From the NCBI GenBank assembly GCA_031364845.1, contig JANLWX010000145.1, positions 1-21,302 of the forward strand: a stretch of DNA of 21,302 nucleotides, read 5' to 3'. The translations under genes and the position numbers were made by a program. The notes under the pieces were generated by a model. That model was given only the letters and a program-made list of their open reading frames with translations. It made no database searches and was not told where the DNA came from. Shown piece by piece: positions 136 through 20,831 of this stretch. How positions within the stretch are numbered: the stretch's first letter is position 1; the number at the start of each line of letters is the position of its first letter. Origin of the DNA: Candidatus Eiseniibacteriota bacterium. GTDB taxonomy: Bacteria > Eisenbacteria > RBG-16-71-46.

Positions 136-1769
136 TAGAGACTGTTCACCGGCTCGAACAGTGGGATTTGGCCCGGTTTGGGCGGAGCCTTGGGCAGGTT
201 CTCGATGCTGAGGCTGTAGTCGTCGTGACCCCACTCACAGCGGGAGAGCACGGCTTTAGGGAGCTTCTTCACCGTCAGGTTCGGATAGCGCTCAGCTTTA
301 CCGCGGAACGCGGTACAGAGCACGAGCAGCGACCGCTCAGGGCCGACCTCGTCGGAGAGTTGCTGAAGTTGATCGGCGCTCAAACTCTGCGTGGTGACGT
401 AGATGAAGTCGCGTTCGGTCGAGTGGCCGTGCTGCCAGTAGAGCGCATCGCTCGGTGCGTACTGGAAGCCTTCAAGTTTGCAGACCGCCTCGGCCAGCAT
501 CGCTGGATTGAATTCCTTCCTGATGACCCAATTCCCCCACTTGTCCTTCTCGAGAAGCGAGGGTGCGAGACGGTAGTAGCGAAATCCACCGCCGCCTTTC
601 CAACCGGTGGCTTCAGTGACACCGCCGGGATCGGCTCCGTCGATGACCTTCGCAAGTCGCGGGATGATGTGCGTGTGGCAGTGCTCGCCGAGCTCGACCA
701 TGATCCAGCGGCGGCCCATCTTGTGGGCAACTGCGCCGGTGGTACCGGAACCCGCGAAGGAGTCGAGAACGATGTCGCCGGGGTTGGTGGCGATTTGGAG
801 AATCCTCTGTAACAACCCTTCCGGTTTTGGCGTTGCGAATGGCTCTACGTCGGCTAGGAGCTTGTTCAGGTGATCACGCTTCGCTTCCTGATTGGTGCCA
901 ACCTCATCTGCCGACCACCAGGTTCTAGGTGCCACACCATCGCGCACTTCACTGAGGTACCGCTTAATTATTGGTAGGCGGTCGTCGTTCACCCCGAAGT
1001 AGGCACGCCCCTCACTCCGAGCCGTCTCTAACGTCCGCTCGGAGAATGCCCAGTACCTGCCTGGAGGAGGGGTAACCACTCGGCCAGAGGGGAGTGTCAC
1101 TGGAAAGCGTTGCTTTTCAGTACCGCTCTTCGCCGTTCCGTCATCACCTTGCCGCCATGGTCCACGCGGATCCATGTCAGGATTCTTGAACCTGCCGAGC
1201 TGAGTTGTGGTTCTCGGAAGAAGGTTCCGAGCCGCCGACCATGCCGCTCGCACTTTGGCATAGACAAGTACGTTGTCATGAGAGAGCGAGATATCCGCGT
1301 CACCACGTCCACCCTTGTCTTTCTCCCAAACACACGTAGCCACGAAATTCTGGCGGCCAAAAATCTCGTCACAGATCACCTTGAGATAGTGTGCTTCGTT
1401 GTCGTCTATGGTGATCCAAAGAGATCCGGAATCGCATAGCAGCCTGTTGATTTGGTCGACTCGATCTCGCATGAGCGACAGCCAAACCGAGTGCTCCACA
1501 CCATCGTCGTAGTGCTCGAACGCACTCCCTGTGTTGTATGGCGGGTCAATGAACACGCACTTCACTTTCCCCGAGAACTCCGCTTCCAGCGCCTTCAGCG
1601 CGAGCAGGTTGTCCCCGAAAATCAACCGGTTGTCGAACTGGTCGCCTTCGGTAACACGATGCGCGGCGTGGTGCGACTTCTCCGGATCCTCGAGCAGGAT
1701 CCGCGGTTCCAGCCGCGGGCGGTTCTCTTTGCCGATCCAAGTGAGTTCGAGCTTCTGCTTGCGGTTCAC
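135..1769 (-). CDS. mod: Site-specific DNA amino-methyltransferase, Type III R-M Mod-like (beta class, likely N6-adenine)
   Basis: GDNLLAL, catalytic IDPPY, TPKPE, then SAM-binding DSFAGSGTT in beta order. LELTWIGK N-terminus and GGGFRYY are typical of Mod subunits. GTG start 4 bp after the SNF2 stop. Confidence 0.9.
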   Translation of the reverse strand: MNRKQKLELTWIGKENRPRLEPRILLEDPEKSHHAAHRVTEGDQFDNRLIFGDNLLALKALEAEFSGKVKCVFIDPPYNTGSAFEHYDDGVEHSVWLSLMRDRVDQINRLLCDSGSLWITIDDNEAHYLKVICDEIFGRQNFVATCVWEKDKGGRGDADISLSHDNVLVYAKVRAAWSAARNLLPRTTTQLGRFKNPDMDPRGPWRQGDDGTAKSGTEKQRFPVTLPSGRVVTPPPGRYWAFSERTLETARSEGRAYFGVNDDRLPIIKRYLSEVRDGVAPRTWWSADEVGTNQEAKRDHLNKLLADVEPFATPKPEGLLQRILQIATNPGDIVLDSFAGSGTTGAVAHKMGRRWIMVELGEHCHTHIIPRLAKVIDGADPGGVTEATGWKGGGGFRYYRLAPSLLEKDKWGNWVIRKEFNPAMLAEAVCKLEGFQYAPSDALYWQHGHSTERDFIYVTTQSLSADQLQQLSDEVGPERSLLVLCTAFRGKAERYPNLTVKKLPKAVLSRCEWGHDDYSLSIENLPKAPPKPGQIPLFEPVNSL

Positions 1770-1773
1770 GGTG

Positions 1774-4801: not shown

Positions 4802-4991
4802 GAACCGTCGGCTAATCGTCACCGTGCTATGGCAAGCCGAGTGAGCCTGTGAAGATGATCGAGCCCCGCCCACCGCACCCGGTGGTAGACTTCTCCTGGC
4901 CGCCGCTGGGTGGCCGAGTCGCCGCGGGCGGATTCGACGATCCTGCCCCGGCAGAGTGTCCGCTGAGCACCCAGACGCAGGAGAGACCACC

Positions 4992-6293
4992 ATGCTTCGT
5001 CGTATTCTGCCGCACCGTGCCGGTCCCCGCGTCGTGGTTCTTCTCGGCATCGGCGCTGCACTCCTGGCCGGCACGCCGGCAGGCGCGCCTATCGTGAACC
5101 GCAGCGTTCTGAAGAGTTTCTACAGCGCGAGCCCGGGGACGACCGGGAGCCAGCCCCGAACGATCGACAGCGAGATCCTGCTGACCTACACCGCGGGCCT
5201 CGCCGGGATGACGTCGGGATCGGGCGCGGCGACGGCACTGTTCCTGTTCGACACGAACGGTGAGCCTCTGACCTCGGGCACCGGCGAAGTTGTGTGCGCG
5301 CCGTGTCTCTATCAAACCGGTGGTACAGCACCGCGACGCACGAGCATCTTGATCGACGACCTGATCATGGCTCACGGAGGCTTTGGAACCAGCGGACAGA
5401 CGAAGCAAGGCTTCGCGGTCATGGACGCCACCGGCGACGCCGACCAACTGACCGCAATGGTCCGGATCAAGACCACCACCGGAACGCCGGGCCAGCCGAG
5501 CATCGTGCCGATCCTGCCGGCGGACGTTCTCAAGGACTTCTTCGAGGCGAGCGTTCAGCCGCGCGTATTCGTGGCTTCCAAGCTGGATGGCATCACCGAC
5601 TGGAACGTGGGCGACTGGGCGATCTTCCATGCTACGTACCTGGGCGGCATCGGCAGTATGCCTGCGGGTGGAGGCGCGAGCCTCGAGGTCTACCTGTTCA
5701 ACGACGACGGAACTCCTAAAGGCGGCAGCACCTCGCCCCAGTGTGCCCCGTGCACCTACGCCCTCGGCAGCGGCGGCACTTCGGGCGCGCGCAACGTCGA
5801 CCTGCGGTTTCCCGCGTCACCGACCGCGTCGGGCGACGGCTTCGCCGTGTTCCGCGTGGCCGGGGCCGACCCGAGTGCCGTGGTCATCGAGCAGACGGAC
5901 GTGGATTCGATTCCCGGAGCGATTCCGACGGTGCTCGTCGTGCGATCCCATGCCCTCGATGCACTCGACCCGCCCGCCGGAAGTGTCGCCGCGAACGAGC
6001 CCGATGTGCAGGGCGCCGCACTCGCGTTGCGCGGAAGCCCCAATCCCTCCGCGGGCGGGATGATGTTCGCCTTCGATCTCGCGAGCGCGACGACCGTGGA
6101 TCTCGAGGTCTTCGACGCTGCCGGACGCAGGATTGCCACCGTGGGGTCCGGCGTACGCGCGGCCGGGCATCACGAGGTGCGCTGGGATCGGCGTGATGAC
6201 GCAGGGAATTCTCTGGCCGCAGGGATCTACTACGGCCGCCTGCGCGCGGGCGACGGTTCGCGCATCACGCGGTTGGTGTTCCTGCCGGAGTAG
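4992..6293 (+). CDS. Secreted protein with two copies of an unknown CAPC-containing domain and a C-terminal FlgD Ig-like/sorting-type domain
   Basis: ATG at 4992 after AGGAG; N-terminal basic plus hydrophobic signal peptide. C-terminus GSPNP...LEVFDAAGRRIAT...WDRRDDAG...GIYYGRL. Internal repeat offset is 149 aa. Confidence 0.8.
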   Translation: MLRRILPHRAGPRVVVLLGIGAALLAGTPAGAPIVNRSVLKSFYSASPGTTGSQPRTIDSEILLTYTAGLAGMTSGSGAATALFLFDTNGEPLTSGTGEVVCAPCLYQTGGTAPRRTSILIDDLIMAHGGFGTSGQTKQGFAVMDATGDADQLTAMVRIKTTTGTPGQPSIVPILPADVLKDFFEASVQPRVFVASKLDGITDWNVGDWAIFHATYLGGIGSMPAGGGASLEVYLFNDDGTPKGGSTSPQCAPCTYALGSGGTSGARNVDLRFPASPTASGDGFAVFRVAGADPSAVVIEQTDVDSIPGAIPTVLVVRSHALDALDPPAGSVAANEPDVQGAALALRGSPNPSAGGMMFAFDLASATTVDLEVFDAAGRRIATVGSGVRAAGHHEVRWDRRDDAGNSLAAGIYYGRLRAGDGSRITRLVFLPE

Positions 6294-6314
6294 GCGGCGC
6301 GGCGTGGCGGGCGT

Positions 6315-8141
6315 CTACTCGATCCGGAGAATCCTCAGCGAGGCAACTGCGCCGGGCGTGCTCAGCCGCGCGAAGTAGAGCCCGGGAACGACGCGCGAAC
6401 CGTCGGCGGCCTCGCCATTCCAGATCGCCTCATGACGGCCGGCGTCACGCTCGCCGCTCACGAGCGTCTGCAGCCGGCGCCCCGTGATATCGAAGATCGC
6501 AAGCTCGACGCGCATGGGGTGCGGCAAGGCATACGACATGCGGGACTCGGTGCGCGAGGGGTTGGATCCGGCCAGCTCCAGCGCCAGTGATCGGCTCGCC
6601 GCCAGGTCTTCCACGCTCACCACCGCCGACGGCCCGGTCGTAAACGCCGAGCCCGCGAACGCCTGATCGACCGCCTGGACGCCCCAATGGATCTGCCCGT
6701 TCGGAAACGCGCTGCGCGGCAGCGTCCACTGGCGCTTCTGACCGACGTTCCCATTCTGTGCGACGCGCCGGAAGCCGTTCGCGAGGTTCGACATCGGAGC
6801 CATGACGTTCGGCGTTCCGGCCGCAGTGCCCGCCCACAGATTGTAGGTGAGGCCGAGTGGCGCGCCCTGCGCATCGGTCGAGGCGTTCCAGCTGAAGGTG
6901 ACTTCGCCCGTGGTCGTGACCGAGAGGCCGGTCGGCGCGGAGGGTGCGGCATTCGCGGATACGCCCGCGACGCGATAGATGCGATGGATCTCGATCAGCG
7001 AACCCTGATCATCGGCCCCCGCCATCATCAGATCGAGGTCGCCGTCCTTGTCGTAGTCGCCCCACGCGAGCGAGCTGTAGAACAGGTTCGGAATGCCGGC
7101 ACTGATGTCGGTGAAGCCCGATCCGGTGTTCCGGTACACGGCTCCGAAGCCGGTCGAACCGGTGGCACCGGCTTCCGCGATGTCCATGCGCCCGTCGTTG
7201 TCGTAGTCGCCCCACACGGTCGATGAGGAGCTCAGCCCTTGAATCACCGCACCCGCGCTGGCAAAGCTGCCGGCGGTGTTGCGCCACACCTCGGTGATGT
7301 AGGAGCCGCTGATGAGCAGATCCGGGTCGCCATCGTTGTCGTAGTCCGCCCAACCGAACGCGCCATTGTTCACGGCCGGCAGGCCCGTGACGACCGGGCT
7401 CAACGTGCCCCCGGTATTCCGGTAGAGCGTGGTGAAGCTGTCAAAACCGGGTCCTGTACCGCTCACGATCAGATCGAGGTCGCGATCGAGATCGTAGTCG
7501 GCCCACGCCATCGCGCTGTAGGACAGGCCGGCGATTCCGGCAGCCGCGTCTGTGAATGTGCCGGCGGTGTTGCGGTAGATCCGTGCGAGCATTCCCGAGT
7601 TCCCGTCGCCGCCCGCGAGTGCGACGTCGAGATCGCCGTCGTTGTCGTAGTCCGCCCACGACACGGCGCAATCGCGCACTCCGACGAGAACGGCGCCGAT
7701 GTCGGCGAACGTTCCGGCGTTGTTGCGGAAGATCCGGGTCACGGGGACCGTCGCGTCGTTGCCGCCGATCACGAGATCGAGGTCGCCGTCGCGATCGTAG
7801 TCGCCCCACGCGAGCGAGCATTCGGTCAACCCGGCACCCACCGGGAGTGCCCCCGCGTCGGCGAAGCTGCCCGCGGTGTTCCGGTAGATTCGCGCGATGC
7901 GGCCCGCGAAGTTTCTGCCGACGACCACGATGTCGAGATCGCCGTCGTTGTCGTAATCGCCCCACGCCGTCGAGCCCGAGAAGATCCCGGTGAGCCCGGC
8001 GCCGATGTCGGTGAACGTGGCGGTCAAGGCATGCCCCGCCGTCAGCATGACGGCCATGACTCCAATGGTCATCGCGGTGATGCGTTTCCTGGCGGGTCTC
8101 CCGGTGTTCAGTTCGCTCGCTCGAGCGATAGTCGTCGTCAC
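6315..8141 (-). CDS. Secreted FG-GAP/VCBS-repeat beta-propeller protein with FnIII-like and FlgD Ig-like C-terminal domains (paralog 2)
   Basis: Seven W[GA]DYDxDxxxD repeats; PSAPTGL...FSW...YNL FnIII-like segment; SNP...IFDITGR...WNG...GLYFARL C-terminal domain. GTG start overlaps the upstream TGA (GTGA). Confidence 0.9.
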   Translation of the reverse strand: MTTTIARASELNTGRPARKRITAMTIGVMAVMLTAGHALTATFTDIGAGLTGIFSGSTAWGDYDNDGDLDIVVVGRNFAGRIARIYRNTAGSFADAGALPVGAGLTECSLAWGDYDRDGDLDLVIGGNDATVPVTRIFRNNAGTFADIGAVLVGVRDCAVSWADYDNDGDLDVALAGGDGNSGMLARIYRNTAGTFTDAAAGIAGLSYSAMAWADYDLDRDLDLIVSGTGPGFDSFTTLYRNTGGTLSPVVTGLPAVNNGAFGWADYDNDGDPDLLISGSYITEVWRNTAGSFASAGAVIQGLSSSSTVWGDYDNDGRMDIAEAGATGSTGFGAVYRNTGSGFTDISAGIPNLFYSSLAWGDYDKDGDLDLMMAGADDQGSLIEIHRIYRVAGVSANAAPSAPTGLSVTTTGEVTFSWNASTDAQGAPLGLTYNLWAGTAAGTPNVMAPMSNLANGFRRVAQNGNVGQKRQWTLPRSAFPNGQIHWGVQAVDQAFAGSAFTTGPSAVVSVEDLAASRSLALELAGSNPSRTESRMSYALPHPMRVELAIFDITGRRLQTLVSGERDAGRHEAIWNGEAADGSRVVPGLYFARLSTPGAVASLRILRIE

Positions 8142-9904
8142 TGGATTCGCACCACGCGAAGTGCAGTCGTGAGTGCGCCGGCGTTCAAGCGAACCAGGTA
8201 GAGTCCGGGTGCGGCGTGAGCCGCGTTCCAGCGAACCGTATGTTCACCTGCGGCGCGATCACCGTTGGCGAGCGTCGCGATCGGGCGCCCGGCGATGTCG
8301 AAGACATTGAGACTCACGCGCGTCGCACGCGGCAGCGAATAGACGAAGTGCGCTTCGGAGCGCGTGGGGTTGGGCCCGAGCAAGCGAAGCGCGGGACCCG
8401 GCGCGAGCACGTCATCGACCGCCAGTGTGTGCGGATCCGCAGTCGCGAACGGCGAGCCCGCGAACGCCTGATCGATGGCCTGAACCCCCCAGTAGACGTG
8501 ATTCCCAGAGAAGGCTGCGCGCGGCAGCGTCCATTGAAGATTTTCGTCGGCGTTGCCGCGCTGGGGCACGAGACGGAAGCCGGTCGCGACATTCGCCATC
8601 GGGCTCAGCACATCGGCCAGTCCCGGCGCGGTACCCGCCCACAGGTTGTAGCTCAGACCCAGCCGGCCATTCTGCGCGTCGTTCGCCATGCTCCAATGGA
8701 ACGTCACGTTGGCGGAATCCGAAGTCGCGAACAAGGCCAGTGGAGCCGTGGGCGGAGTGTTCGCGGGCACACCAGAGTTGCGATAGATCGCCGCCGACTG
8801 CGGGCCGGCCAGAAATCGATTCCCGACGAGCAGCAAATCGAGGTCCGCATCGTTGTCATAATCACCCCACGCGAGCGAGCCCACCGCGACGCCGGTGAGG
8901 CCCGCGTTCATGTCACTCATCCCGATTCCGGTGTTGAGGTACACCGCCGCAAATCCCGTCGACGCTGTGTTACCGGCCAAGGCGATGTCGAGATCGCCAT
9001 CGTTGTCGGCATCACCCCAAATGCTGCCTCCGGAGTTGACGCCCTGGATCACGGCGTTCGCATTGGCGAAGAATCCCACTGAGTTTCGATAGATTCGAGT
9101 GATCGGGGACGAAGCCACGTTGCCGGACAGCGTGAGATCGAGATCGCCATCGTTGTCGAAATCACCGAAGTTCAAGGATCCGCGTGAGACACCGGTCACG
9201 GGCCACGTCATGAGCGTGAAGGCGCCGCCCGAGTTGCGGTAGAGATTCGTGACGGGAGTGGTGCCCGACATGCCGGAGATCGCGAGATCGGAATCTCCGT
9301 CGTTGTCGTAGTCCCCCCACGCCATCGCGCACAGCGTGAGCCCGGTGATCGACACCGCGGCATCGACAAAGACTCCGGCTGTGTTGCGGTAGATGCGCGC
9401 GATCCCTCCCGCGCCGGAATCGCCGCCGAAAGCGAGGTCGAGATCGCCGTCATTGTCGAAGTCGACCCACGAGATGGCGCACGCGGACACGCCCGGAAGC
9501 CCTGCTGCGATATCGGTGAACGCGCCGAGGTCGTTGCGATAGATGCGCGTGACGGGCACTCCCGCGTGCAGACCGGCGAGCGCCAGGTCGAGATCGCCGT
9601 CGCGGTCATAGTCGCCCCACGCCACCGCTCCGTTGTGCGCGACCGCATCAGCGGGCAGCGCGACGGCGTCCGCAAAGGCTCCGCCGGTGTTGCGGTAGAT
9701 ACGCGCGATGTCGCCGGCGACGGTCGTGCCGATCATCACGAAGTCGAGATCTCCGTCTGAGTCATAGTCGCCCCAGGCGACCGCGGGTGCGTTCACGCCG
9801 GTGATGCCCGCGCCAATGTCGGTGAACGTCGCCCACGCGGGAACCGCCGAAAGCAGGGTCAGAGCGAGGGCGAACCACCATCGAATTGCGGAAGCAGGGA
9901 GCAT
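8138..9904 (-). CDS. Secreted FG-GAP/VCBS-repeat beta-propeller protein with FnIII-like and FlgD Ig-like C-terminal domains (paralog 1)
   Basis: Signal peptide ending VPAWA; seven WGDYDNDGDLD-type repeats; PPTAP...FHW...YNL; GPNP...VFDIAGR...PGLYLVRL. Confidence 0.9.
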   Translation of the reverse strand: MLPASAIRWWFALALTLLSAVPAWATFTDIGAGITGVNAPAVAWGDYDSDGDLDFVMIGTTVAGDIARIYRNTGGAFADAVALPADAVAHNGAVAWGDYDRDGDLDLALAGLHAGVPVTRIYRNDLGAFTDIAAGLPGVSACAISWVDFDNDGDLDLAFGGDSGAGGIARIYRNTAGVFVDAAVSITGLTLCAMAWGDYDNDGDSDLAISGMSGTTPVTNLYRNSGGAFTLMTWPVTGVSRGSLNFGDFDNDGDLDLTLSGNVASSPITRIYRNSVGFFANANAVIQGVNSGGSIWGDADNDGDLDIALAGNTASTGFAAVYLNTGIGMSDMNAGLTGVAVGSLAWGDYDNDADLDLLLVGNRFLAGPQSAAIYRNSGVPANTPPTAPLALFATSDSANVTFHWSMANDAQNGRLGLSYNLWAGTAPGLADVLSPMANVATGFRLVPQRGNADENLQWTLPRAAFSGNHVYWGVQAIDQAFAGSPFATADPHTLAVDDVLAPGPALRLLGPNPTRSEAHFVYSLPRATRVSLNVFDIAGRPIATLANGDRAAGEHTVRWNAAHAAPGLYLVRLNAGALTTALRVVRIQ

Positions 9905-10044: not shown

Positions 10045-10755
10045 CTAAAGTCCCAGCAACTCCGCCACGTCAGCCGTCGCCGGAGCCGCCCGCACCGCTT
10101 CGGGCGGACCGATCTGGGCGATGCGTCCGTTCGCCAACACCGCCACCTGATCTCCGAAGGCGAACGCCTCGGCCGGCGCATGCGTCACGTAGAGCGTCAC
10201 GCACGAGAGCGACTCGAGCAGGCGGTGCAGTTCCCCGCGCACGCTGCGGCGGGTTTGGAGGTCCAGTGCCGCCAGCGGCTCGTCGAGCAGCAGCAGACGG
10301 GGCTCCAACACCAGCGCGCGCGCGAGCGCCACGCGCTGCTGCTGCCCTCCCGAAAGCTGTGATGGTCGGCGCTGCGCAAGCCCCCGCACGCCGAGACGAT
10401 CGAGCGTTCGCGCGACGCGATCGCGCGTCTCCGACGGCACCCGGCCTTCCGCGCGCAAACCGAACGCCACGTTCTCCTCGACGCTCAGATGCGGGAACAG
10501 CGCGTAGTCCTGAGCGACATATCCGACCGGTCGTCGCCACGCATCGAGCAATCGGCGCGTTCCGTCGTGCCACACGACGCCTTCCAGCTCGATGTGGCCG
10601 GAATCCGGATCGAGCACCCCGGCCAGCAGCCGCAGGAGCGTCGTCTTGCCGGAGCCGCTCTCGCCGAGCAGCGCGATCGTGCTCCCGGGGCGCGCTTCAA
10701 GCGTCACGTCGAGCGCGAACTCGCCGAGCTTTCTAGCGACCTGCGCGCGCAACAA
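10045..10755 (-). CDS. modC: Molybdate ABC transporter ATP-binding subunit (short form, no C-terminal TOBE)
   Basis: GESGSGKT Walker A, QDYALFPHL, LSGGQQQRVALARAL, LLLDEP, YVTH. The real start is probably TTG at 10755 (or 10752) after AGGGGG, overlapping the modB end. The ORF-track extension to 10941 lies inside modB. Confidence 0.85.
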   Translation of the reverse strand: MLRAQVARKLGEFALDVTLEARPGSTIALLGESGSGKTTLLRLLAGVLDPDSGHIELEGVVWHDGTRRLLDAWRRPVGYVAQDYALFPHLSVEENVAFGLRAEGRVPSETRDRVARTLDRLGVRGLAQRRPSQLSGGQQQRVALARALVLEPRLLLLDEPLAALDLQTRRSVRGELHRLLESLSCVTLYVTHAPAEAFAFGDQVAVLANGRIAQIGPPEAVRAAPATADVAELLGL

Positions 10756-11548
10756 CCGGCACCCCCTGATTTCCCGGGCGCCGCAGCCAGAACAGCAGCG
10801 TGAAGGCGATCGCGAGCAATACGACCGACAGCACGATCGCGGCATCGAGGTCGGATTGGAGTGCGACGTACACCGCGAGCGGCATGGTCTGCGTGGTGCC
10901 GGGCAGATTGCCGGCGAACGTGATCGTGGCACCGAACTCACCGAGCGCGCGCGCGCCGCTCATCGCGGCACCGGCGATGAGTGCCGGCATGCTGAGCGGA
11001 AGGACGACGCGAAAGAATGTGTCGAGCTCCGAGGCGCGCAGGGTCGCCGCCGCATCGACGTAGCGCGGATCCACGCCCGCGATTCCGGCGCGCGCAGCAC
11101 CGATGAAAAATGGAGCCGACATGAATGCCTGCGCCACGATCACGCCGAGTGTCGTGAACGGCAGCGACACACCGAACGCTTCGAGCGCGCGGCCGGCGAG
11201 GCCGGCGCGACCGAACGCCATCAGCAGCGCAAAACCTGCGACCGTCGGCGGCAGCACCATGGGCAGATCGACCAGCACTTCGAGCACGCGCTTGCCGCGA
11301 AAGTCGCGGCGCGCGAGCAGGTAGGCGAGCGGGAGTCCGCCTGCGACGACGAGCACTGTCGCGGTCACGCTCGTGAGGACGCTGAGCCGCAGTGCTGCGA
11401 GAATTTCGGGCTCCAGCAGGCGCGCGAACAGCGTCCCCGGATGGACGCGCAGCAGAAGTGCGGCGATCGGGACCACGAGCAGCAGGAGCATCCCCGAGAT
11501 TCCGATCGCGAGTGCCGCGCGCGTCGCGAGGTCGCGCGCCCGGGTCAT
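10733..11548 (-). CDS. modB: Molybdate ABC transporter permease (ModB/NifC-like)
   Basis: DLPMVLPPTVAG, DAAATL (EAA-like loop), ARALGEFGAT, TQTMPLAVY; multiple hydrophobic segments; ATGA coupling to the upstream gene. Confidence 0.92.
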   Translation of the reverse strand: MTRARDLATRAALAIGISGMLLLLVVPIAALLLRVHPGTLFARLLEPEILAALRLSVLTSVTATVLVVAGGLPLAYLLARRDFRGKRVLEVLVDLPMVLPPTVAGFALLMAFGRAGLAGRALEAFGVSLPFTTLGVIVAQAFMSAPFFIGAARAGIAGVDPRYVDAAATLRASELDTFFRVVLPLSMPALIAGAAMSGARALGEFGATITFAGNLPGTTQTMPLAVYVALQSDLDAAIVLSVVLLAIAFTLLFWLRRPGNQGVPVVARAGR

Positions 11549-11940
11549 CCTCCGCGGCCTTTGGCGATCATCACTTCGGTCGCCTTCATGACCGCCGCCA
11601 CTTCGTCGCCTTCTGAGAGCCGCAGCCGTTCCGCGGAGGAGCGCGTGATCACAGCCACCAGATCCTGATCTCCGATGCGAACGACGACCTCCGCCATGAG
11701 CCCGTCGGTGCGCAACGAAACGATGCGGCCGCGGAGGTGATTGCGCGCGCTCAGCATTTCGGTCGCCGCGGCCGGCGGCGGAGCGGAGCGGCCGATCAGG
11801 CGTTCGATCTCGCTACGATGGAACAGCCACTTGCGCCCGACCCGCACGGCGGGAAGCTTGCCCGACCGCGCGAGGACCTGAACGCGCCGGACGTCGAGAC
11901 GCAGCATGTCGGCGGCTTCCTGTGCGGTGAGGGTTTCCAT
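11545..11940 (-). CDS. Excisionase-like (HTH_17) DNA-binding domain fused to a molybdate-binding TOBE/Mop domain; likely molybdenum-responsive regulator
   Basis: LTAQEAADML...LPAVRVGRKWLF (HTH_17) followed by LSARNHLRG...AVITRSSAERLRL..GDEVAAVMKATEV (Mop). ATG at 11940 after GAGG. Confidence 0.88.
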   Translation of the reverse strand: METLTAQEAADMLRLDVRRVQVLARSGKLPAVRVGRKWLFHRSEIERLIGRSAPPPAAATEMLSARNHLRGRIVSLRTDGLMAEVVVRIGDQDLVAVITRSSAERLRLSEGDEVAAVMKATEVMIAKGRGG

Positions 11941-12126
11941 GTCGGACCTCTCATGGTGGATCGATACCGGGCGCCTCGAAATCAAGCATTTAAGAGCACT
12001 TTGCGGCAACGGGACGAGAAGGGCAAGGGAGCGTGATGGCGGGGGGTTCGAGTCGAGCAGCAGCAGATGCGGGCTGTCTCTATGCTGGCGTTTTCGTGAC
12101 AGCGGCGGAATTGCGGCGCGCGTGGC

Positions 12127-12531: not shown

Positions 12532-12641
12532 CGCCACACCTACGCGCTAGCGTTCTCGTGATCCCATGTGGCCCCGGCCTCCCGCAGCATGGCCGTTGTC
12601 CCGGGCGATACCTCGAACCCCACCTTTCAGCGAGACGAACC

Positions 12642-15600
12642 ATGATGCCGTGCCGACGTGCGATTTCGTTTCTGCTCATGGCCCTCATCCTCGCACTGCT
12701 CGGGGCTCTCGACTTGCGATCCGCGGCGGCGGCCGGCTCATCCCCGCTCCAAGCACTGAACGCGCTCAATCGTGACGGCAAGTACGCACTCGCCACCGCG
12801 GGTGCGCGCGAGTTGCTCGCGAAGGAATCGTCGCAGTCGAAGCCCGACTCGCTGCAGATCGCGGCCATCCTCGACGTGCTCGTCGAATCTTTGTGGCGCG
12901 GCGGGAAGGCAGGTCAGCCCGAGACACGTGAGTTGGCACAGCGAGCGGTTGATATCCGCGAACGACGCTTCGGAGGCGGCAGTCCCGAAACGGCGGCCGC
13001 ACTCACGAGTCTCGGGAACGTTCTGTATGCCAGAAACGACTATGCCGGCGCCCTGCCTCCGCTCGAACGGGCGCACTCGATACAGGAGGTGAAACTCGCT
13101 CCCGACGACCCCGTTCTCGCGACGACCTTGGCCGCGCTCGGATCCGTGCTCCGCTCGAAAGGCGAGTATCCGGCGGCTCGTCCGCTGATCGAACGCGCGC
13201 TGGCCATCCGCGAGAAGGTGTTGGGACCCGATCACCCCGACGTGGCCTCATCGCTCGGAACGCTCGGGACGCTGTTCGGCGATCTCGGCGACTACGCCGG
13301 CGCACGAAGATCCTACGAACGTGTGATTGCGATCCGAGAGAAGACCTTGGGACCCGATCATCCGCTCGTGGCGTCGGCATACGACAATCTCGGCCTGGTG
13401 CTTCGCGTCACGAGTGACTACGCGGCGGCGAGAGTGGCGCACGAACGCGGACTCGCCATTCGCGAGAAGATGCTCTCACCCGACGACCCGGCGATCGCGA
13501 ACAGCCTGCAGAACCTCGGGCTGGTCTTCCGCGCCATGGGCTCCTACTCCGAAGCGAGACCACTCTACGAGCGTGCGGCGAGGATTCGTGAGGTCGCACT
13601 GGGTCCCGAGAATCCCGAATACGCGCGGGCAATCAACAATCTCGCCAATTTGCTGCGCGACATGGGCGACGATCGTGAGGCGCGCCCACTCTATGAGCGC
13701 GCACTCGCGATTCGTGAGAAGACACTCGGCCCTGACCATCCAGACCTCGCGAATACTCTCGACAATTTCGGTCTGCTCCTGGAGAACACCGGTGACTATG
13801 TGAATGCCCGCCGCCACTTCGAGCGCGCTCTCGCGATCTCCCGCAAAAAACACGGGCCCGACCACACCAGCGTGGCGATCGCACTGTGGGCGCTGGCGGG
13901 TGCGGTCGAGCGTCAAGGAGATCTGGCTCAAGCCCGAACGCTCTACGAGAACTCGCTCGCGACGTGGGAACGAGCGCTCGGCCCGCGACACACCGACATC
14001 GTTCTGGCGATGAACGGCCTCGCCGGCGTTCTGATGGCGTTGGGGGAGCACACCGCCGCGCGTCGGGTCTGCGAGCGCGGTATCGCGATCCGTGAAACAC
14101 TCGGAACGAATCATCCCAAGGTCGCAGAGAGCCTGCATCGGCTCGGAGAGATCCATATGTCGGCGGGCGACATCGCGGCCGCCCAGTCCGTGCTCGAACG
14201 CGCCCTGACCATTCGGGAGACCGCCCTCGGCCACCAGAATCCGGAAGTCGCGGCGACGCTCTACCTGCTCGCGCGGGCGCGCGCGGTGGAAGGCGCGCGC
14301 GTTGATGCGCTCGCTCAGGCACTCGAGGCAGAAACGATTGCGCGCGAGCACCTGCGGATTACGGCGCGCGGGCTCGCGGAACGTCAGGCCCTGTTGTACG
14401 ACGCGGTGCGTCCGCGGGGTTTGGACATCGCGCTCTCGCTGGCCGCGCGCGGAATCGACGGACCGTCGCGCCGGCGCGTGTTGGACGCGCTTGTTCATTC
14501 GCGTGCGTTGGTGCTGGATGAGATGGCGGCACGGCACAGCGCCGTCAGCGCATCCTCCGACAGCGCCGGCGTGCGACGGCTGGCCGATCTCATGCAGGCG
14601 CGCGAACGGCTTGCGGCGTTGTTGGTGCGCGGAGTTTCGGGAAACGCCGTGGAAGCGTATCGGCGGCAGGTCGACGATGCGAGGACCGCTACAGATGTGG
14701 CGGAGCGCGGGCTCGCCCGAGTGAGCGAAGGTTTCGCGCGCGAGCAGTCGCGAATTCGGTCGGGCCTCGATGAGGTGGCGGTGAGCCTGCCTGCGGGCAG
14801 CGCACTCGTCGCCGTGACCCAGTACCAGCGAATCGATCTCTCGACGGCGCGCGATCGGTTGAAGGGCGATGTGTTGCACGACCGTTCGGATGTTCCCTCC
14901 TACCTCGCGTTCGTACTGCGCGCGGGCGACCGGGATCCGACGATCGTGGATCTCGGCCCGGCCGCAGCGATCGACGCACGCGTCGAGCGATGGAGAAAGG
15001 ACGCGAGCGCTTCCGGCGCATTTGCCGTCGCCAGTACGGAGCGTCCATCGCAGGTGAGCGGAACCGCGCTGCGAAAAGCCGTATGGGACCCGATCGCATC
15101 GGCGATCGGCGATGCGGCGCGCGTGTTCGTGGTACCCGATGGATCTTTGAATCTGGTGAACTTCGCCGCGCTCCCCGCAAAGGGTGATGGCTTCGTGATC
15201 GAACACGGGCCGTTGATTCACATTGCCTCGGCCGAGAGAGATCTGGTCGCAGCGAGTACTGTGCGTCGCGGCAACGGCATGCTCGCGATCGGCGCGGTGG
15301 ACTACGAGGGAGCATCGAAGCCCGCGATCGCATCACGACGGCCACTGCCGGTCGCGAGTGCGAATCTGGCGGGATCGACGCCTGCAGCGCTCGCGGCGAC
15401 GGAGAACTACCGCGGCCCGCGGGCGGAATGCGGAGATCTGGCGGCCGCTCGCTTCGAGGCCCTGCCTGCCACCGGCACGGAAACCCGCGAGATCGTCGCT
15501 CTGTGGAACCGGGCGGGCGGTGACCGTGGCGCGGCGACCGAGTTGAGGGATGGAGCGGCCGACGAGAACACGTTCAAGAAGTCGGCGAAAGGACACCGGG

Positions 15601-16181
15601 TGCTCCACCTGGCGACGCATGGCTTCTTCCTCGGCGAGTGCCAGGCGGCGCACGCGTCGACCCGGGGAATCGGCGGACTCGATGAAACGCCTGCGCCAAG
15701 GACCACCCTGGCGCCAAAGGTTGCCTCACCCCCTGAAGCGCGAGTGAATCCGCTGCGGCTTTCAGGGCTGGTGCTCGCGGGTGCCAATCACCGTGCAGAG
15801 GTCGCGGTCGGCGAGGAGGACGGGATCCTCACGTCGGAGGAGATCGCCTCGATCGATCTGTCGGGCACCGAATGGGTGGTGTTGTCGGCGTGTGAGACCG
15901 GCGTCGGCGACGTCCATGCCGGAGAAGGTGTGTTCGGATTGCGGCGCGGGTTCCAGATCGCGGGCGCCGGTACCCTGATCATGAGTCTGTGGTCGGTCGA
16001 CGACGAGTCGACGCGAGCGTGGATGAAGGCGCTGTATCAATCGCGTCTCGAGCGCGGGCTCGACACCGCCGAATCGGTGCGCCAGGCCAGCCTCGAAGTG
16101 TTGAAGCAACGTCGCGCCACCGGCCAGTCGACCCACCCGTTCTACTGGGCCGCCTTCATCGGCGCCGGCGACTGGCGCTGA
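12642..16181 (+). CDS. Secreted TPR-CHAT protein (caspase-like clan CD protease)
   Basis: Signal peptide (RRAISFLLMALILALLGAL...AAA); about 11 kinesin-light-chain-type 42-aa TPRs. CHAT motifs VPDGSL, LPATGTE, HLATHG (His 15618), LSACETG (Cys 15891), SLWSVDD and HPFYWAAF; catalytic dyad intact. Confidence 0.92.
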   Translation: MMPCRRAISFLLMALILALLGALDLRSAAAAGSSPLQALNALNRDGKYALATAGARELLAKESSQSKPDSLQIAAILDVLVESLWRGGKAGQPETRELAQRAVDIRERRFGGGSPETAAALTSLGNVLYARNDYAGALPPLERAHSIQEVKLAPDDPVLATTLAALGSVLRSKGEYPAARPLIERALAIREKVLGPDHPDVASSLGTLGTLFGDLGDYAGARRSYERVIAIREKTLGPDHPLVASAYDNLGLVLRVTSDYAAARVAHERGLAIREKMLSPDDPAIANSLQNLGLVFRAMGSYSEARPLYERAARIREVALGPENPEYARAINNLANLLRDMGDDREARPLYERALAIREKTLGPDHPDLANTLDNFGLLLENTGDYVNARRHFERALAISRKKHGPDHTSVAIALWALAGAVERQGDLAQARTLYENSLATWERALGPRHTDIVLAMNGLAGVLMALGEHTAARRVCERGIAIRETLGTNHPKVAESLHRLGEIHMSAGDIAAAQSVLERALTIRETALGHQNPEVAATLYLLARARAVEGARVDALAQALEAETIAREHLRITARGLAERQALLYDAVRPRGLDIALSLAARGIDGPSRRRVLDALVHSRALVLDEMAARHSAVSASSDSAGVRRLADLMQARERLAALLVRGVSGNAVEAYRRQVDDARTATDVAERGLARVSEGFAREQSRIRSGLDEVAVSLPAGSALVAVTQYQRIDLSTARDRLKGDVLHDRSDVPSYLAFVLRAGDRDPTIVDLGPAAAIDARVERWRKDASASGAFAVASTERPSQVSGTALRKAVWDPIASAIGDAARVFVVPDGSLNLVNFAALPAKGDGFVIEHGPLIHIASAERDLVAASTVRRGNGMLAIGAVDYEGASKPAIASRRPLPVASANLAGSTPAALAATENYRGPRAECGDLAAARFEALPATGTETREIVALWNRAGGDRGAATELRDGAADENTFKKSAKGHRVLHLATHGFFLGECQAAHASTRGIGGLDETPAPRTTLAPKVASPPEARVNPLRLSGLVLAGANHRAEVAVGEEDGILTSEEIASIDLSGTEWVVLSACETGVGDVHAGEGVFGLRRGFQIAGAGTLIMSLWSVDDESTRAWMKALYQSRLERGLDTAESVRQASLEVLKQRRATGQSTHPFYWAAFIGAGDWR
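12930..14330 (+). repeat. Array of about 11 tandem 126-bp TPR-coding repeats
   Basis: Recurrent ERALAIREKxLGPDHPxxA at 42-aa spacing; boundaries approximate. Confidence 0.85.
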
Positions 16182-16227
16182 CGAAAGATCCCGCCCGCGA
16201 CCTGAGTCACGAACGGGATCTTCGTTT
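16181..16227 (+). terminator. Hairpin after the TPR-CHAT stop; probable terminator
   Basis: ACGAAAGATCCCG...CGGGATCTTCGT, followed by only a short T run. Confidence 0.55.
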
Positions 16228-16260
16228 AAAGCCCGGCGGCCGGCCCCCGAACCGCCGGGC
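16225..16260 (-). terminator. Hairpin after the minus-strand operon; probable terminator
   Basis: Perfect 9-bp stem GCCCGGCGG (16231-16239) / CCGCCGGGC (16252-16260), followed by TTTAAA on the minus strand. Confidence 0.55.
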
Positions 16261-16266
16261 GATAGG

Positions 16267-16878
16267 TCAGCGCAACACCACGATCTTCCTCGAAGCATGA
16301 TCCGTCTCGGAGTCGAATCGAACGAAGTAAATCCCCGCGGCGACCGGACGTCCGGAATCGTCCACACCCTCCCAGTTTCGATGATGGCGTCCCGCGGGAA
16401 GCGAGCCCTCGACGAGCGTCTTCGCGACGCGCCCCGATGCATCGAAGATTCTCATGCGCACGAATCTCGCAGCGGGCAGGTCGAACGCGATCGCAGAGTT
16501 CCGAACAAGCGGATTAGGTGACGCCGCATGCAGCCGAAACGCAACCGGCATGTCGGTCGTTGCGCCGTCGCCGACATCGTCGCCCTCTTCGACGCCGACA
16601 ATGATCGGCGCCCCACCCCGCCAGAATCCGCCCGCGAGTGAGTAGACCCCGCCGGTCATGGTTCCCGCGTCGGGCTGACCGATGGTGCTGCCGACGATGT
16701 ACGAACCGCCGTGCAGCTTGGTCTCTCCACCGCCGTCGACCGTGTACCAATCGATTGTGTATTGGGCAGCGACAGGGACTGTCGCAGCCATCGATAGCGC
16801 CACGAGCACCGTACTGCACCACATCATGCGCGCCAGGGTTCGGGTGCCGCTCTTTATGAGATTCGAGTGATCACTCAT
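16267..16878 (-). CDS. Small secreted protein: 'YTIDWYTVDGGG...IGQPDAG...GGFW' domain plus FlgD Ig-like C-terminal domain
   Basis: GGAG RBS; signal peptide ending PVAA; C-terminus ASPNP...IFDASGR...WEGVDDSG...GIYFVRF. Confidence 0.85.
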   Translation of the reverse strand: MSDHSNLIKSGTRTLARMMWCSTVLVALSMAATVPVAAQYTIDWYTVDGGGETKLHGGSYIVGSTIGQPDAGTMTGGVYSLAGGFWRGGAPIIVGVEEGDDVGDGATTDMPVAFRLHAASPNPLVRNSAIAFDLPAARFVRMRIFDASGRVAKTLVEGSLPAGRHHRNWEGVDDSGRPVAAGIYFVRFDSETDHASRKIVVLR

Positions 16879-16947
16879 CGTTCTTCTCCAGTCTGAATAT
16901 CGAGATCGCCGCGCGGCATTCGACGCGATACCGAGGAACGCGCAACA

Positions 16948-18234
16948 TCAACGAGGTCCGATCGCAATAAAGTTCAGCGGACCGCCGACGTAGCTGCCGT
17001 CGCTGCGGTAGTACTGAGCGATCCTCACCTGGGTCGTGCTCACGGAAACGATCTCGCAGAATGCGGTATTGCATCCAACGCAATCGGTGGCGGTGGCAGT
17101 GACAGTGGGCGGCGAGGTGAATGGTGTGTTGAAGGTGATCGTGCGGATGAAGTTCGCCGCACAACCGGCCTCGAGCGTGAATCCCGATCCATACTGGATT
17201 GTGCCGGTCGCGCAGCCGTTGATGCTGCCGCGGATGATGCGCAGGTTCTCCTGACCCGCGGCGGCGAGGTCATTGTTGATCCGGACCCGTCCGCCCTCGA
17301 CGTGGAGCTTTTCGGTCGGCACGGAGGTACCGATTCCGACGTTACCGTTGCCCTTGAACCGGACCCGCTCTGTGAAGGTGTTGGAGGAGCCGTATCCGAA
17401 TCCGATGTCCGCGGCGGCATCGTCCGTGTGGATCTGCATCAGATTGCTCTGGATGCCGAAGCCATAGTTGGGCTCTCCGGTCGGAGGGTTGTAGAGCGAG
17501 ATCTTCTGACCCAGCGATGGCGGGAACGACAACGGGTATGAAGGCGTGGACAGGCCGATGCCGACGTTGCCGGAGTTCGAAACCACAGTGAGCTGTGGCT
17601 GGAAAGTCTTGGTCGCAAGGTCCGATGAGCTCGCGCGACCGATGCTCACCTTGCGGGTATTGCTCGTGTACCCGGTCGAGATGAATCCGTGCGCCACCCC
17701 GCCGTCGAGGAAGCTGCCGAGCACGAGGTCGTTGATACTGGTGTTCGCGAGCATCCCAGGGGAGTTCGTGGCGCTCGACGGAGCGATCCGGACTCCGACT
17801 CCACCGGTCGGGTGGTAGAGGAATTTCGATTCGATCGCCTGATGCGCGTACGGCGTTCCGGTGAGCGGCTGCCGCGGGGTGAGCACTGTCGTCGCACTAC
17901 AGGCCGCGTTGGTGCAGACCTCGACCTGGAGCCAGCGCGCGTCCCCGTCGAAAGGCAGGCTGCCGAACTGAGCGCCCGCGTTCAGTTCGACGGAGAAGAT
18001 GCCGCCGCTGACGAGCACGTTGGGCACAATCTGGTTCGCGCCCACCTGCGCTCCGCCGGATACGGCGTCCCACAGGCTGAAGCGAAAGTGTGCCGTCCCC
18101 GTAACAGGGCTACCGCTCTGATTGAGCTGGCCCTGGTAGGTGAATCCCGTGCCCAGTGGAGCTGCAGTAACCTTGGGTGCCGTGAAGACGGCGAGTGCAA
18201 TGCAGCACAGCAGCGACAGCCGAAAAGCCTTCAT
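16948..18234 (-). CDS. Secreted fibre/adhesin-like protein (FTYQG N-terminal domain, GNVGIG repeats, tail-fibre-tip-like C-terminal domain)
   Basis: ATG at 18234 after GGAGG; signal peptide. FTYQGQL...G.FSVEL...RWLQVEV...PRQPLTGTPYA; two GNVGIG...P...L repeats; C-terminal ITFNTPFTSPPTV...FIAIG. Confidence 0.8.
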   Translation of the reverse strand: MKAFRLSLLCCIALAVFTAPKVTAAPLGTGFTYQGQLNQSGSPVTGTAHFRFSLWDAVSGGAQVGANQIVPNVLVSGGIFSVELNAGAQFGSLPFDGDARWLQVEVCTNAACSATTVLTPRQPLTGTPYAHQAIESKFLYHPTGGVGVRIAPSSATNSPGMLANTSINDLVLGSFLDGGVAHGFISTGYTSNTRKVSIGRASSSDLATKTFQPQLTVVSNSGNVGIGLSTPSYPLSFPPSLGQKISLYNPPTGEPNYGFGIQSNLMQIHTDDAAADIGFGYGSSNTFTERVRFKGNGNVGIGTSVPTEKLHVEGGRVRINNDLAAAGQENLRIIRGSINGCATGTIQYGSGFTLEAGCAANFIRTITFNTPFTSPPTVTATATDCVGCNTAFCEIVSVSTTQVRIAQYYRSDGSYVGGPLNFIAIGPR

Positions 18235-18400
18235 GGTGCGACCTCCCCCTGTGTTCGGTTGAACGGCGCCGCGTGTGGCCGCCATGGAACATGAATCCCA
18301 GTCTGGAGAACCCTCCTCCTGAATGGGGAAACGCACGCGGAGCGCCGACCGAACACACAAAGTCTCGGGGATGACGCGGCGGCCGCAGGGCGCCGGAAAC

Positions 18401-20224
18401 TCAGGGGCGCGGATTCTCCAGCTCGATGCGGCGCATCCAGACGCCCGACACGGTCTCGGACTCCGAAGCCAGGCGTTGGGCCATCTCGAACAGCCGGCTG
18501 GCCGAGTGCGTTCCGCTCGCGGGCGGCGATTCCGACAGGCTCCCCAGGCCGCGCAGGCGTATCCGGGCCGCCTCCGGCAGCGCGACCGCCGCCTGGCCCG
18601 GCCGCGTCAGCATGCTCATCTCGGCCTCGTACTCGACCAGACGTTCGGGGCTCGCGAGCACCAACAGATGCTCGCGCCCGCCCGGAGAATCGACGGTCCA
18701 CGACAACGCCTTCCCCCCGCGCGAGCCCGGAAGCACGTGGACACCGCCCGGCAGCGGGTTCTGCGGTTCGAGCCCAGGCAGCGGAAACAAAGCGTAAGCA
18801 TGCCCCGCCTCGTCCTCGTTCACGACATAGACGTGGAGCGGGGTTGACGCCTCGAACTCGAGCGTCAGTCGGTCGCCCAGCGCGAGTCGCGCGCCCGGCG
18901 CGAGTTTCTCCCGTACGCTGGAATTCATGGCGACCCGATAGACGGCGGCGGCAACGTTGTAGGCGCCCGCCGGGGCCATAGCGTGCGTCGTCGAAGTCGG
19001 ACCGGGTGGAGCCGCGTCCGAACTCCTCGGCGCACCGGGGGTCTCGACGTCGGGCCGTCTCGGATTCAGAAGGAGAATGGCGGCAACCGCAGCCAGGAAC
19101 GTGAGCGCGACTCCGATCATCAGACGCTGTCGTGAGCGCGGCGGTGCGGAGGCCTGGGACGCCGCCGGCACATGCGCCCCTGTCGTGACAGCGCCACCGG
19201 CGGATAACGCCTGTTCCATTTGCCCCGCCGTCGCGAAGCGCTTCGCGGGATCGCCCGCTGTCGCGCGCTCCACCGCAGCGACGAACGTCTCCGGCAGGTT
19301 CGGGCGCGCATCGCGCAGCAATTCGACTTCCCCGCGCTCGTGCCGTTGCCGGAGCTCGTCCCACGACGTCGCTTCGACCGGGAACCGCCCGCTCACGAGG
19401 CGATGGAGCAGCACGCCGAGACTATAGACGTCGGATTGCTGTGTGGCCGGCCGGCCCGCCAGCAGTTCCGGCGCCATGTAGAACGGCGTTCCGGTCATCT
19501 TGGCGCCCGGCAGTGGCGCTTCGGGGCGCGGCTCGATTCCCGCGCCGAAATCCATCAGCAGGATGCGTCCGCCCTGTTCGCGCATCACGTTCTGCGCTTT
19601 CACATCGCGATGGACGATGCCGGTACCATGCACCGCCGCGAGCGCGCGGCACAGGTCGATCCCGATCAGGATCGCCTCGGACGCACCCAGCAGTCCCTGA
19701 TCCGTGAGCAGTTGTTCGAGCGTGCGACCGTTGATGAGTTCCATCCACAGGCCAATTCGCCCATCGTGCGTGCTCGCTCCGTACACCGTGACGACATTGG
19801 GATGACGAAGTTTCGCGAGCAGACGTCCTTCTTCGACCACCTTCGATGCCTCAATGCTCCCCGCTTCGGATGGCGGCCGCTTGAGCAACTTGAGCGCGAC
19901 CTCGCGATCGAGCTGTGGATCCCACGCGCGGTACAACTCGCCGTACGAACCCTCGCTCAGCTTCACGCGCAGCTCGAGGTGTCCCCAGGTTCCGAGAGCG
20001 GAGGGGCCAACGGATGAGTTTGCGAATCCATCGCCAGCTGACTCTCCCGTCCTCGAACCCTCGACCCCATGGATTCGCGCGACCGTCTGCATGAGCTGGA
20101 GTTGCCGCACGACGGCGCGGTCCGCGTCGCTGGAAGAACGGCGCAACGCTTCGTCCCAATCCACCGGCAGGCCGTCGGCGACGCGCATCGCGAGGTCTTC
20201 GACGATCGGCAGCGGGTCACTCAC
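18401..20224 (-). CDS. Membrane-anchored Hanks-type Ser/Thr kinase with a C-terminal DUF4384-like extracytoplasmic domain
   Basis: GTG at 20224 after AAGGAG, overlapping the sigma stop. EGSYG, VALK, HPNVV, HRDVKAQN, DFG, GTPFYMAPE, DVYSLG; TM LMIGVALTFLAAVAAILLL; GDRLTL...HVYVVNED..G....LFP. The ORF-track extension to 20563 lies inside the sigma gene. Confidence 0.9.
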   Translation of the reverse strand: MSDPLPIVEDLAMRVADGLPVDWDEALRRSSSDADRAVVRQLQLMQTVARIHGVEGSRTGESAGDGFANSSVGPSALGTWGHLELRVKLSEGSYGELYRAWDPQLDREVALKLLKRPPSEAGSIEASKVVEEGRLLAKLRHPNVVTVYGASTHDGRIGLWMELINGRTLEQLLTDQGLLGASEAILIGIDLCRALAAVHGTGIVHRDVKAQNVMREQGGRILLMDFGAGIEPRPEAPLPGAKMTGTPFYMAPELLAGRPATQQSDVYSLGVLLHRLVSGRFPVEATSWDELRQRHERGEVELLRDARPNLPETFVAAVERATAGDPAKRFATAGQMEQALSAGGAVTTGAHVPAASQASAPPRSRQRLMIGVALTFLAAVAAILLLNPRRPDVETPGAPRSSDAAPPGPTSTTHAMAPAGAYNVAAAVYRVAMNSSVREKLAPGARLALGDRLTLEFEASTPLHVYVVNEDEAGHAYALFPLPGLEPQNPLPGGVHVLPGSRGGKALSWTVDSPGGREHLLVLASPERLVEYEAEMSMLTRPGQAAVALPEAARIRLRGLGSLSESPPASGTHSASRLFEMAQRLASESETVSGVWMRRIELENPRP

Positions 20225-20831
20225 GGCCCATCTCCTTCGCCATCCGCAGAAGTGCGCGCGCGACCGCCATGCGCGCCGCATCCGCACTCGGCTTGCCGGA
20301 CGTCTCGGCGATCTCGCCATAGCTGAGCCCGAGTTCGATGCGCGCCAGAACCAACTCGCGTTCGACATCGGTGAGGCGCGCGAGTGCCGCCTCGTAGCGC
20401 GATATCGCTTCCTTGCCGATGACGATTTCGAGCGGAGAGTCACCTTGATCCGGGTGATCGTCGGGAAGTTCCGTTCGGGTCGGCCGAATCCTGGCCTTTC
20501 GAACTTCGTCGCGAATCCGGTTGTCGAGCGCCTGCCGCAGATACGCCCCGAACGCCCCGCCATGACGCGGTACGAAGTTGTGGATGTTCCGCATGGTGCC
20601 CATCAACGCTTCCTGGATCATGTCGTCGGTGTCGACCAGGTCGCGCGACCAGCGCGGGAGCCGGCCCGCCGCCCAGCGGCGCAGGATCGGGCGATAGCGC
20701 TCGAAGAGCACGTCGAGGGCGCGCTGCTCACCTTCTTGGACCCGGCGCACCAACTCGGAGGACGAGGCACCGGCCAGCCCCGGGCCGTCGGCGCCGGAGT
20801 CGTCACGATCGTTGCTGCCGTCCTGCGACAC
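20217..20831 (-). CDS. ECF-type sigma-70 family RNA polymerase sigma factor
   Basis: Region 2 (LFERY...DTDDMIQE...FGAYL...NRIRDEVR) and region 4 (ALARL...RELV...GLSYGEIAE...AARMAVARA). Confidence 0.92.
   Translation of the reverse strand: MSQDGSNDRDDSGADGPGLAGASSSELVRRVQEGEQRALDVLFERYRPILRRWAAGRLPRWSRDLVDTDDMIQEALMGTMRNIHNFVPRHGGAFGAYLRQALDNRIRDEVRKARIRPTRTELPDDHPDQGDSPLEIVIGKEAISRYEAALARLTDVERELVLARIELGLSYGEIAETSGKPSADAARMAVARALLRMAKEMGRE

Follow-up and report, generated by a model that had tools for sequence, protein, structure and literature searches.

The two peptides and the proteins that carry them

The window analysed here is the whole of contig JANLWX010000145.1 (21,302 nucleotides; contig C75 of genome G000) from a Candidatus Eiseniibacteriota bacterium. 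It carries an exported TPR-CHAT protease of clan CD, a membrane Ser/Thr kinase with a DUF4384 ectodomain and, overlapping the start of the kinase gene, a sigma factor of the extracytoplasmic function (ECF) group (Table 1). The initial annotation had pointed to a short motif, RG[IL]G[GS]L[DS]E, in both the protease and the kinase, and had inferred that it is a self-processing or auto-inhibitory site of the protease and a substrate or bait site on the kinase. The two peptides are indeed present. RGIGGLDE lies at 15663-15686 (+), residues 1036-1043 of the 1207-residue open reading frame (ORF) at 12558-16181, from whose start the protease residues are numbered, and it sits between His1021 and Cys1112 as had been described. 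RGLGSLSE lies at 18553-18530 (-), residues 558-565 of the 607-residue kinase (P0001) and 49 residues from its C-terminus. Five of the eight residues are identical. Among the 13,058 ORFs of the genome just these two contain the pattern, which was itself derived from them.

Table 1. Positions of the genes and sites discussed in the text
Feature	Position	Strand	Basis or remark
Exported TPR-CHAT (clan CD) protease	12558..16181	+	Likely start 12642 (1179 aa, P0103)
Signal-peptide-like hydrophobic N-terminus	12642..12725	+	Hydropathy
First insertion (L1 loop) with second Arg-Gly (R952) and Cys958	15411..15431	+	R[GS]x2-5C in 101/119
Glu975, start of helix alpha1, candidate S1-pocket acid	15480..15482	+	119/119 homologues
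Catalytic His1021	15618..15620	+	119/119 homologues
Cys1028, probable disulfide partner of Cys958	15639..15641	+	Co-occurrence across homologues
Protease motif copy RGIGGLDE, in disordered insertion after His	15663..15686	+	106/119 homologues; pLDDT <50
Catalytic Cys1112	15891..15893	+	119/119 homologues
Arg1153, position equivalent to separase P1-binding aspartate	16014..16016	+	Aligns with Scalindua TPR-CHAT K670
203-aa protein with C-terminal FlgD_ig domain	16267..16878	-	Pfam; not a conserved module member
Probably secreted protein, no clear family	16948..18360	-	Not a conserved module member
Membrane Ser/Thr kinase, 607 aa: N-terminal conserved segment, kinase, one transmembrane helix, DUF4384 ectodomain	18401..20224	-	Pfam, hydropathy
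Ig-like beta-sandwich ectodomain, motif loop ahead of last strand	18404..18964	-	Structure model
Kinase motif copy RGLGSLSE	18530..18553	-	Arg in 101/102; motif in 124/125 intact loci
ECF sigma factor overlapping kinase start	20217..20831	-	Pfam Sigma70_r2; sigma2.2 = D-T-D-D

The protease has a caspase-like fold, and the His1021-Cys1112 dyad is retained in all 119 homologues. The predicted dyad is thus intact and proteolysis is plausible. No PDB sequence matched at E <0.27 when searched with profiles of the whole CHAT, of its catalytic half and of the ectodomain. A signal-like N-terminus was scored in 68 of 94 full-length homologues and in 21 of 470 internal windows, using hydropathy as a proxy for a signal-peptide predictor. 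Cys958 and Cys1028 are both present in 118 of the 119 homologues and both absent from the remaining one; in the 61 protease-kinase pairs described below, 45 have both and 16 have neither. This joint presence or absence suggests a disulfide and an extracytoplasmic location. In the structure model the motif is in a disordered insertion past the strand that follows His1021, with a predicted local distance difference test score (pLDDT) <50 at model residues 270-279. CHATs that do not have the motif loop have a short hairpin at the same place. There is also a second conserved Arg-Gly/Ser site, ahead of Cys958 in the L1 insertion, which may be another processing site.

The kinase matches Pkinase (E 6e-42) and DUF4384 (PF14326; E 4e-12, 46.5 bits against a curated cut-off of 27) in Pfam, and its transmembrane helix was assigned by hydropathy. 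The motif begins approximately 30 residues past the DUF4384 match. The ectodomain is modelled as an Ig-like sandwich with a confident core, and the motif falls inside a loop, some 45 residues long and of low confidence, that precedes the last strand. Fold searches with the ectodomain returned generic Ig-like matches only. One relative of the ectodomain, P0250, has no motif, which suggests that the fold is independent of it. Both copies of the motif are therefore in low-confidence loops of the predicted structures, consistent with exposure and not burial.

Conservation and covariation of the motif

We scanned 136 loci, made up of 120 genome regions around ectodomain matches, 17 other loci and the window, less two duplicates. 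R-G-[IV]-G-G-[LV] is present in 124 of the 125 loci with an intact kinase-ectodomain gene. In 102 kinase homologues (the window's own included) the arginine is found in 101, the next glycine in 99 and the third-position glycine in 100, and the flanks are variable. The motif is also present in 150 of the 150 best ectodomain representatives (50% clustering), and all 85 of these longer than 520 residues have a kinase domain. On the protease side, 119 of the best 120 of 6,379 CHAT matches could be anchored and 106 of these have the motif, with its arginine 13-15 residues past the His-Gly. All of these conservation counts are inflated, as the homologue sets were collected with motif-containing queries. 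The conserved core is thus R-G-[IV]-G-G-[LV], and the final [DS]E of the motif as first proposed is variable (Glu occupies kinase column 565 in 30 of 102).

The ectodomain family comprises at least 785 clusters (E up to 1e-30), and the named records among its relatives come from Candidatus Eisenbacteria and Acidobacteriota. The ectodomain was found in 81 of the 206 genomes from the window's phylum and, with only eight candidates scored per genome, in 13 of the 401 from that of G151; each tally includes one unpublished genome (G015 and G307, respectively) that was used nowhere else. A metagenome scan gave three loci. Among 70 loci of about 20 kb, 67 have an ECF gene and 52 a CHAT gene, and no fourth gene family occurs in more than 12 of the 136 loci. 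The conserved unit is therefore an ECF sigma factor, a membrane kinase with an Ig-like DUF4384 ectodomain and an exported TPR-CHAT protease. The kinase motif persists where there is no CHAT gene within 10 kb, and of the two copies it is the more constant.

We then compared the two copies locus by locus. There are 73 intact loci with both the ectodomain motif and a CHAT gene. Eleven fell under the CHAT-motif score threshold (six loop-less, four divergent or mis-anchored and one frameshifted) and one was a duplicate, leaving 61 pairs; in 36 of these the CHAT gene directly follows the kinase gene on the same strand. Motifs were anchored by a single fixed template that was blind to the partner. 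Over the nine residues after the arginine, cognate pairs score 23.5 as compared with 17.0 for shuffled pairs (z 10.6), a level reached in none of 10,000 shuffles. When one pair per cluster was taken, z was 9.5, 7.5, 5.6 and 3.0 for 51, 35, 18 and 8 clusters. Shuffles confined within the same clusters reached the cognate match in 2,470, 48, 0 and 0 of 5,000 trials, respectively (48 at the 0.5 cut and 0 at the 0.55 cut).

The agreement is specific in several respects. Residues that are rare but common to both copies occur 12 times in the first five positions, where 1.7 are expected (50 clusters). Positions 6-11 match in register only (z 5.0; shifted registers, 1.5 or less). Exchanging paralogues within a genome made the agreement poorer in 20 of 21 comparisons, with one tie; this comparison used an earlier set of 49 pairs, two rows of which (L111 and L093) were mis-read. 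Examples are L077, whose two proteins both have RGVGELADA, and L082, with RGAGAI and RGAGEI; RSIGGL and RGIGLL stand in both proteins of L075 and L063, respectively. At identical residues the codons are the same in 143 of 323 cases (44.3%) for cognate pairs and in 43.7% for other pairs; copying of the motif at the DNA level was rejected on these grounds, which suggests that selection acts on the peptides. The second Arg-Gly site of the protease does not vary in step with the kinase motif (z 0.0; 37 of the 61 pairs scored).

Taken together, conservation, covariation and the flexible loops give good support to the functional link between the two genes that had been proposed. The match within this one window is at chance level, yet the comparison across relatives indicates that the shared peptide is real and co-evolving, and the predicted cleavage is plausible.

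Predicted cleavage after the arginine and its alternatives

The reading that we favour, with modest confidence, is that the exported protease binds the ectodomain of the neighbouring kinase and cuts it at the Arg-Gly bond. The protease would take the exposed R-G-[IV]-G-G-[LV] loop into its active-site cleft and cleave after the arginine. The last beta-strand (about 49 residues) would thereby be cut off from the portion anchored in the membrane, and this would alter the state of the kinase and in turn switch the co-encoded ECF sigma factor. The protease's own copy, in the disulfide-tied insertion after the catalytic histidine, would be an optional look-alike, acting either as a self-processing site or as a built-in competitor until a signal arrives.

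Several results weigh against this reading, and we give them together with the alternatives on which they bear. Beside the inflated conservation counts, the match at the single locus is what chance would give: of 300 shuffled ectodomains, 145 gave an equal or better 8-mer against the whole protease and 59 did so against the CHAT domain alone. The pair in this window is a middling match among the pairs. Shuffling inside the tightest clusters leaves no signal (the 2,470 of 5,000 given above). Swaps between sister pairs are not significant (16:11:3, p 0.44; 13:6:5 in the earlier set), and close sisters mostly have the same motifs. Neither the nearest-neighbour test (p 0.08-0.54) nor tree-based independent pairs (median p 0.22-1, from a tree with three truncated kinase rows) reached significance. 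The chance-level window match and the failed sister and independent-pair tests would suit an explanation in which two Gly-rich loop motifs are kept for separate reasons and appear to covary by co-inheritance. However, co-inheritance does not lead unrelated proteins to adopt identical rare residues in register, and there is no signal at the control Arg-Gly site or in the residues upstream of the arginine. We therefore regard coincidence with shared ancestry, which was already disfavoured, as very improbable.

The neighbourhoods add two further difficulties. There is no CHAT gene in 18 of the 70 full-length loci, and the CHATs beside six modules have no motif loop while the kinase keeps its motif. 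The latter bears on the self-site predicted in the protease: it fits most CHATs (106 of 119), and its absence from these six shows that it is optional. It could be supposed that both loops are read by a third protease or partner whose gene lies elsewhere. This would lead one to expect that kinases keep the motif where no CHAT is nearby, as they do, and two further CHATs of the genome have RG loops with no such kinase adjoining. Against this, paralogous modules within one genome have module-specific motif pairs and the loci contain no further conserved gene, so that we hold a third partner to be highly unlikely.

The two further CHATs are at G000:C204:16528-20193 (+) and G000:C78:11566-14721 (-). 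They have hydrophobic N-terminal segments and the RG loops RGVATP and RGIGTV, and neither adjoins a DUF4384 kinase. The genome has one such ectodomain, and these CHATs may share it or have other targets.

Whether the arginine is the P1 residue is the central point, and here the evidence is mixed. The main argument in favour is a near-invariant arginine ahead of small residues in floppy loops. Specificity in clan CD is usually read at P4-P1, and the four residues before the arginine do not covary in the 61 pairs (z 1.0). The lack of signal before the arginine, with matching up to 11 residues after it, more closely resembles a docking groove. The initial annotation had also argued from relatives that cut after arginine, and this argument is weaker than was claimed. 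Separase D2151, which binds the P1 arginine, has been equated with K670 of the Scalindua TPR-CHAT (PMC9729208). K670 aligns with Arg1153 (E 0.47; the alignment is weak and uses the Cys and Trp as anchors), where the homologues have Arg in 96 and Met in 14 of 119. The protease thus has an arginine at the position of the separase S1 aspartate, which speaks against separase-type recognition. Invariant Asp1149 was considered as that aspartate and rejected, the published equivalence mapping four residues later. In addition, craspase TPR-CHATs cut after Met or Leu (PMC11506125). There is an invariant acid, Glu975. It heads the first helix after strand beta1 (model helix 201-217), as placed by position, and helix alpha1 is the site of TbMCA2 Asp95 and gingipain Asp163 (PMC4357240). 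Judged by position, Glu975 could provide the S1 acid in place of the separase-type aspartate.

These observations make mimicry without cutting the most serious alternative, although we think it unlikely. Both peptides would dock in one groove and displace each other, with the protease acting as a ligand or co-receptor whose catalytic target lies elsewhere. The groove could be the prime-side cleft of the protease, its TPR groove or the sheet edge of the ectodomain; the ectodomain model has a weak strand at residues 140-143. A covariation that is long, one-sided and in register fits such docking, as does the missing separase S1 acid, and the AIL3 loop of separase itself binds next to the active site as an inhibitor (PMC10317155). 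Less easily accommodated are the intact dyad and the almost invariant arginine before small residues in floppy loops of both proteins, which look like a scissile bond; separase substrate sites also lie in flexible loops (PMC10317155).

The one-sided pattern could be explained in another way, by analogy with protease-activated receptors, which are triggered by a tethered ligand. Both loops would be cut after the arginine and the new N-terminus, G-[IV]-G-G-[LV], would bind a pocket of the ectodomain, so that a processed protease could trigger the kinase in trans. The covariation begins right after the arginine with none before it, and Trp89, Glu98 and Asp51, invariant residues of the ectodomain, could shape a pocket. 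A prime-side cleft is a simpler account of the same pattern, and we consider the tethered ligand improbable. The hairpin after the catalytic histidine and the L1 loop presumably border the prime side of the cleft, as in caspase structures, and this would fit prime-side covariation.

Cutting of the ectodomain, docking without cutting and the tethered ligand have in common that one surface reads both peptides, and over the three together we hold this to be very probable. As the protease is the only conserved partner, binding and cutting of the ectodomain are favoured. That the whole is a protease-activated receptor kinase, in which the residues after the arginine are a co-evolving address that keeps several modules per cell apart, has in our estimation an even chance of being right.

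The sigma factor, the remaining genes and related systems

In region sigma2.2 of 123 sigma factors, Thr68 and Asp70 are each invariant (123 of 123) and position 67 is Asp or Glu in 112. The invariance of Thr68 is no more than suggestive of a site at which the kinase might phosphorylate the sigma factor. The first 55 residues of the kinase (20040-20224, -) are a conserved segment of no known family that is also found in small Planctomycetota proteins, and searches with the N-terminal 62 residues matched unnamed clusters only. The segment is a candidate sigma-binding domain. Read by eye, kinases P0251, P0272, P0323, P0382 and P0385 have apparent TPR-like repeats between the transmembrane helix and DUF4384.

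Within 4956-9904 and at 16267-16878 the window encodes four proteins that are probably secreted and have a FlgD_ig domain at the C-terminus, two of them with FG-GAP repeats. The region 135-4725 (-) contains DNA methyltransferase-like and SNF2-type helicase-like genes that by eye resemble a restriction-modification system, with a GC content of 0.58-0.60 as compared with 0.63-0.70. At 10045-12009 (-) a TOBE/helix-turn-helix regulator is followed by ABC permease and ATPase genes resembling a molybdate transporter, with no binding-protein gene seen between them.

Three described systems join CHAT proteases to sigma factors; what we say of these and of the other published systems refers to the parts of the sources available to us. 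In DdvA-DdvS of Myxococcus xanthus (PMC11506125) a zinc anti-sigma factor, a transmembrane helix and a TPR-CHAT form one chain. Here the protease is a separate exported protein with a short hydrophobic N-terminus, its partner in the membrane is a Ser/Thr kinase containing DUF4384 and there is the shared peptide. The locus G000:C47:7589-12469 looks like a split version of the DdvA-DdvS layout: a CHAT whose loop has no RG motif is divergently oriented to an ECF-like ORF and to a membrane protein resembling zinc anti-sigma factors (HxxxCxxC). Type III-E Craspase (Csx29, Csx30, RpoE; 10.1101/2022.08.17.504292, PMC9729208) is cytoplasmic, RNA-triggered and CRISPR-linked, cuts after Met or Leu and, as described there, has no kinase. 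The protease studied here has a signal-like N-terminus and paired cysteines, unlike a cytoplasmic enzyme. Cas7-11, Csx30, Csx31 and a CRISPR array were absent from the ten window proteins scanned and there is no conserved fourth gene, as judged without a dedicated Cas search. The SAVED-CHAT/PCaspase/PCk/PCc-sigma cluster of Haliangium ochraceum (10.1101/2023.06.23.546230) likewise groups caspase-like proteases, a Ser/Thr kinase and a sigma factor, and cleavage of its kinase has been hypothesised. It differs in being triggered by a cyclic nucleotide and in having two proteases, and the accessible account describes no exported one.

Separase (PMC10317155, PMC4626109) is eukaryotic and intracellular, and reads residues before the arginine; the position of its P1-binding aspartate is Arg in this protease. 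The ECF43 systems EcfP-PknT and EcfK-PknS (PMC8999054, PMC13147305) also have an ECF gene adjoining a membrane Hanks-type kinase and an invariant Thr in sigma2.2. In ECF43, however, the acids of DxxD are lost, the third position of the motif is phosphorylated and no protease is described in the accessible text. The sigma factor here keeps both acids and has the Thr at the second position, and membership of ECF43 was rejected on the DxxD motif in spite of the adjacent kinase. A kinase family with DUF4384 exists (10.1101/2025.01.12.632604) and other caspase-ECF neighbourhoods have been described (PMC8195603). We did not find the module or the motif in the literature searched, which included few subscription papers and no supplements, so that an ECF classification table could list the gene context. 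A separate exported protease, a DUF4384 receptor kinase and a shared peptide are not described for DdvA-DdvS, Craspase or the Haliangium cascade in the parts of those reports available to us.

Little is known about bacterial TPR-CHAT proteases (PMC11506125), and few have a known substrate. For the periplasmic example, DdvA, the trigger is still open. The module described here names a candidate substrate and a candidate bond from sequence alone. If the proposal is correct, DUF4384 would gain a function, proteolysis would become an input to ECF-linked kinases and the modules would supply natural orthogonal protease-peptide pairs.

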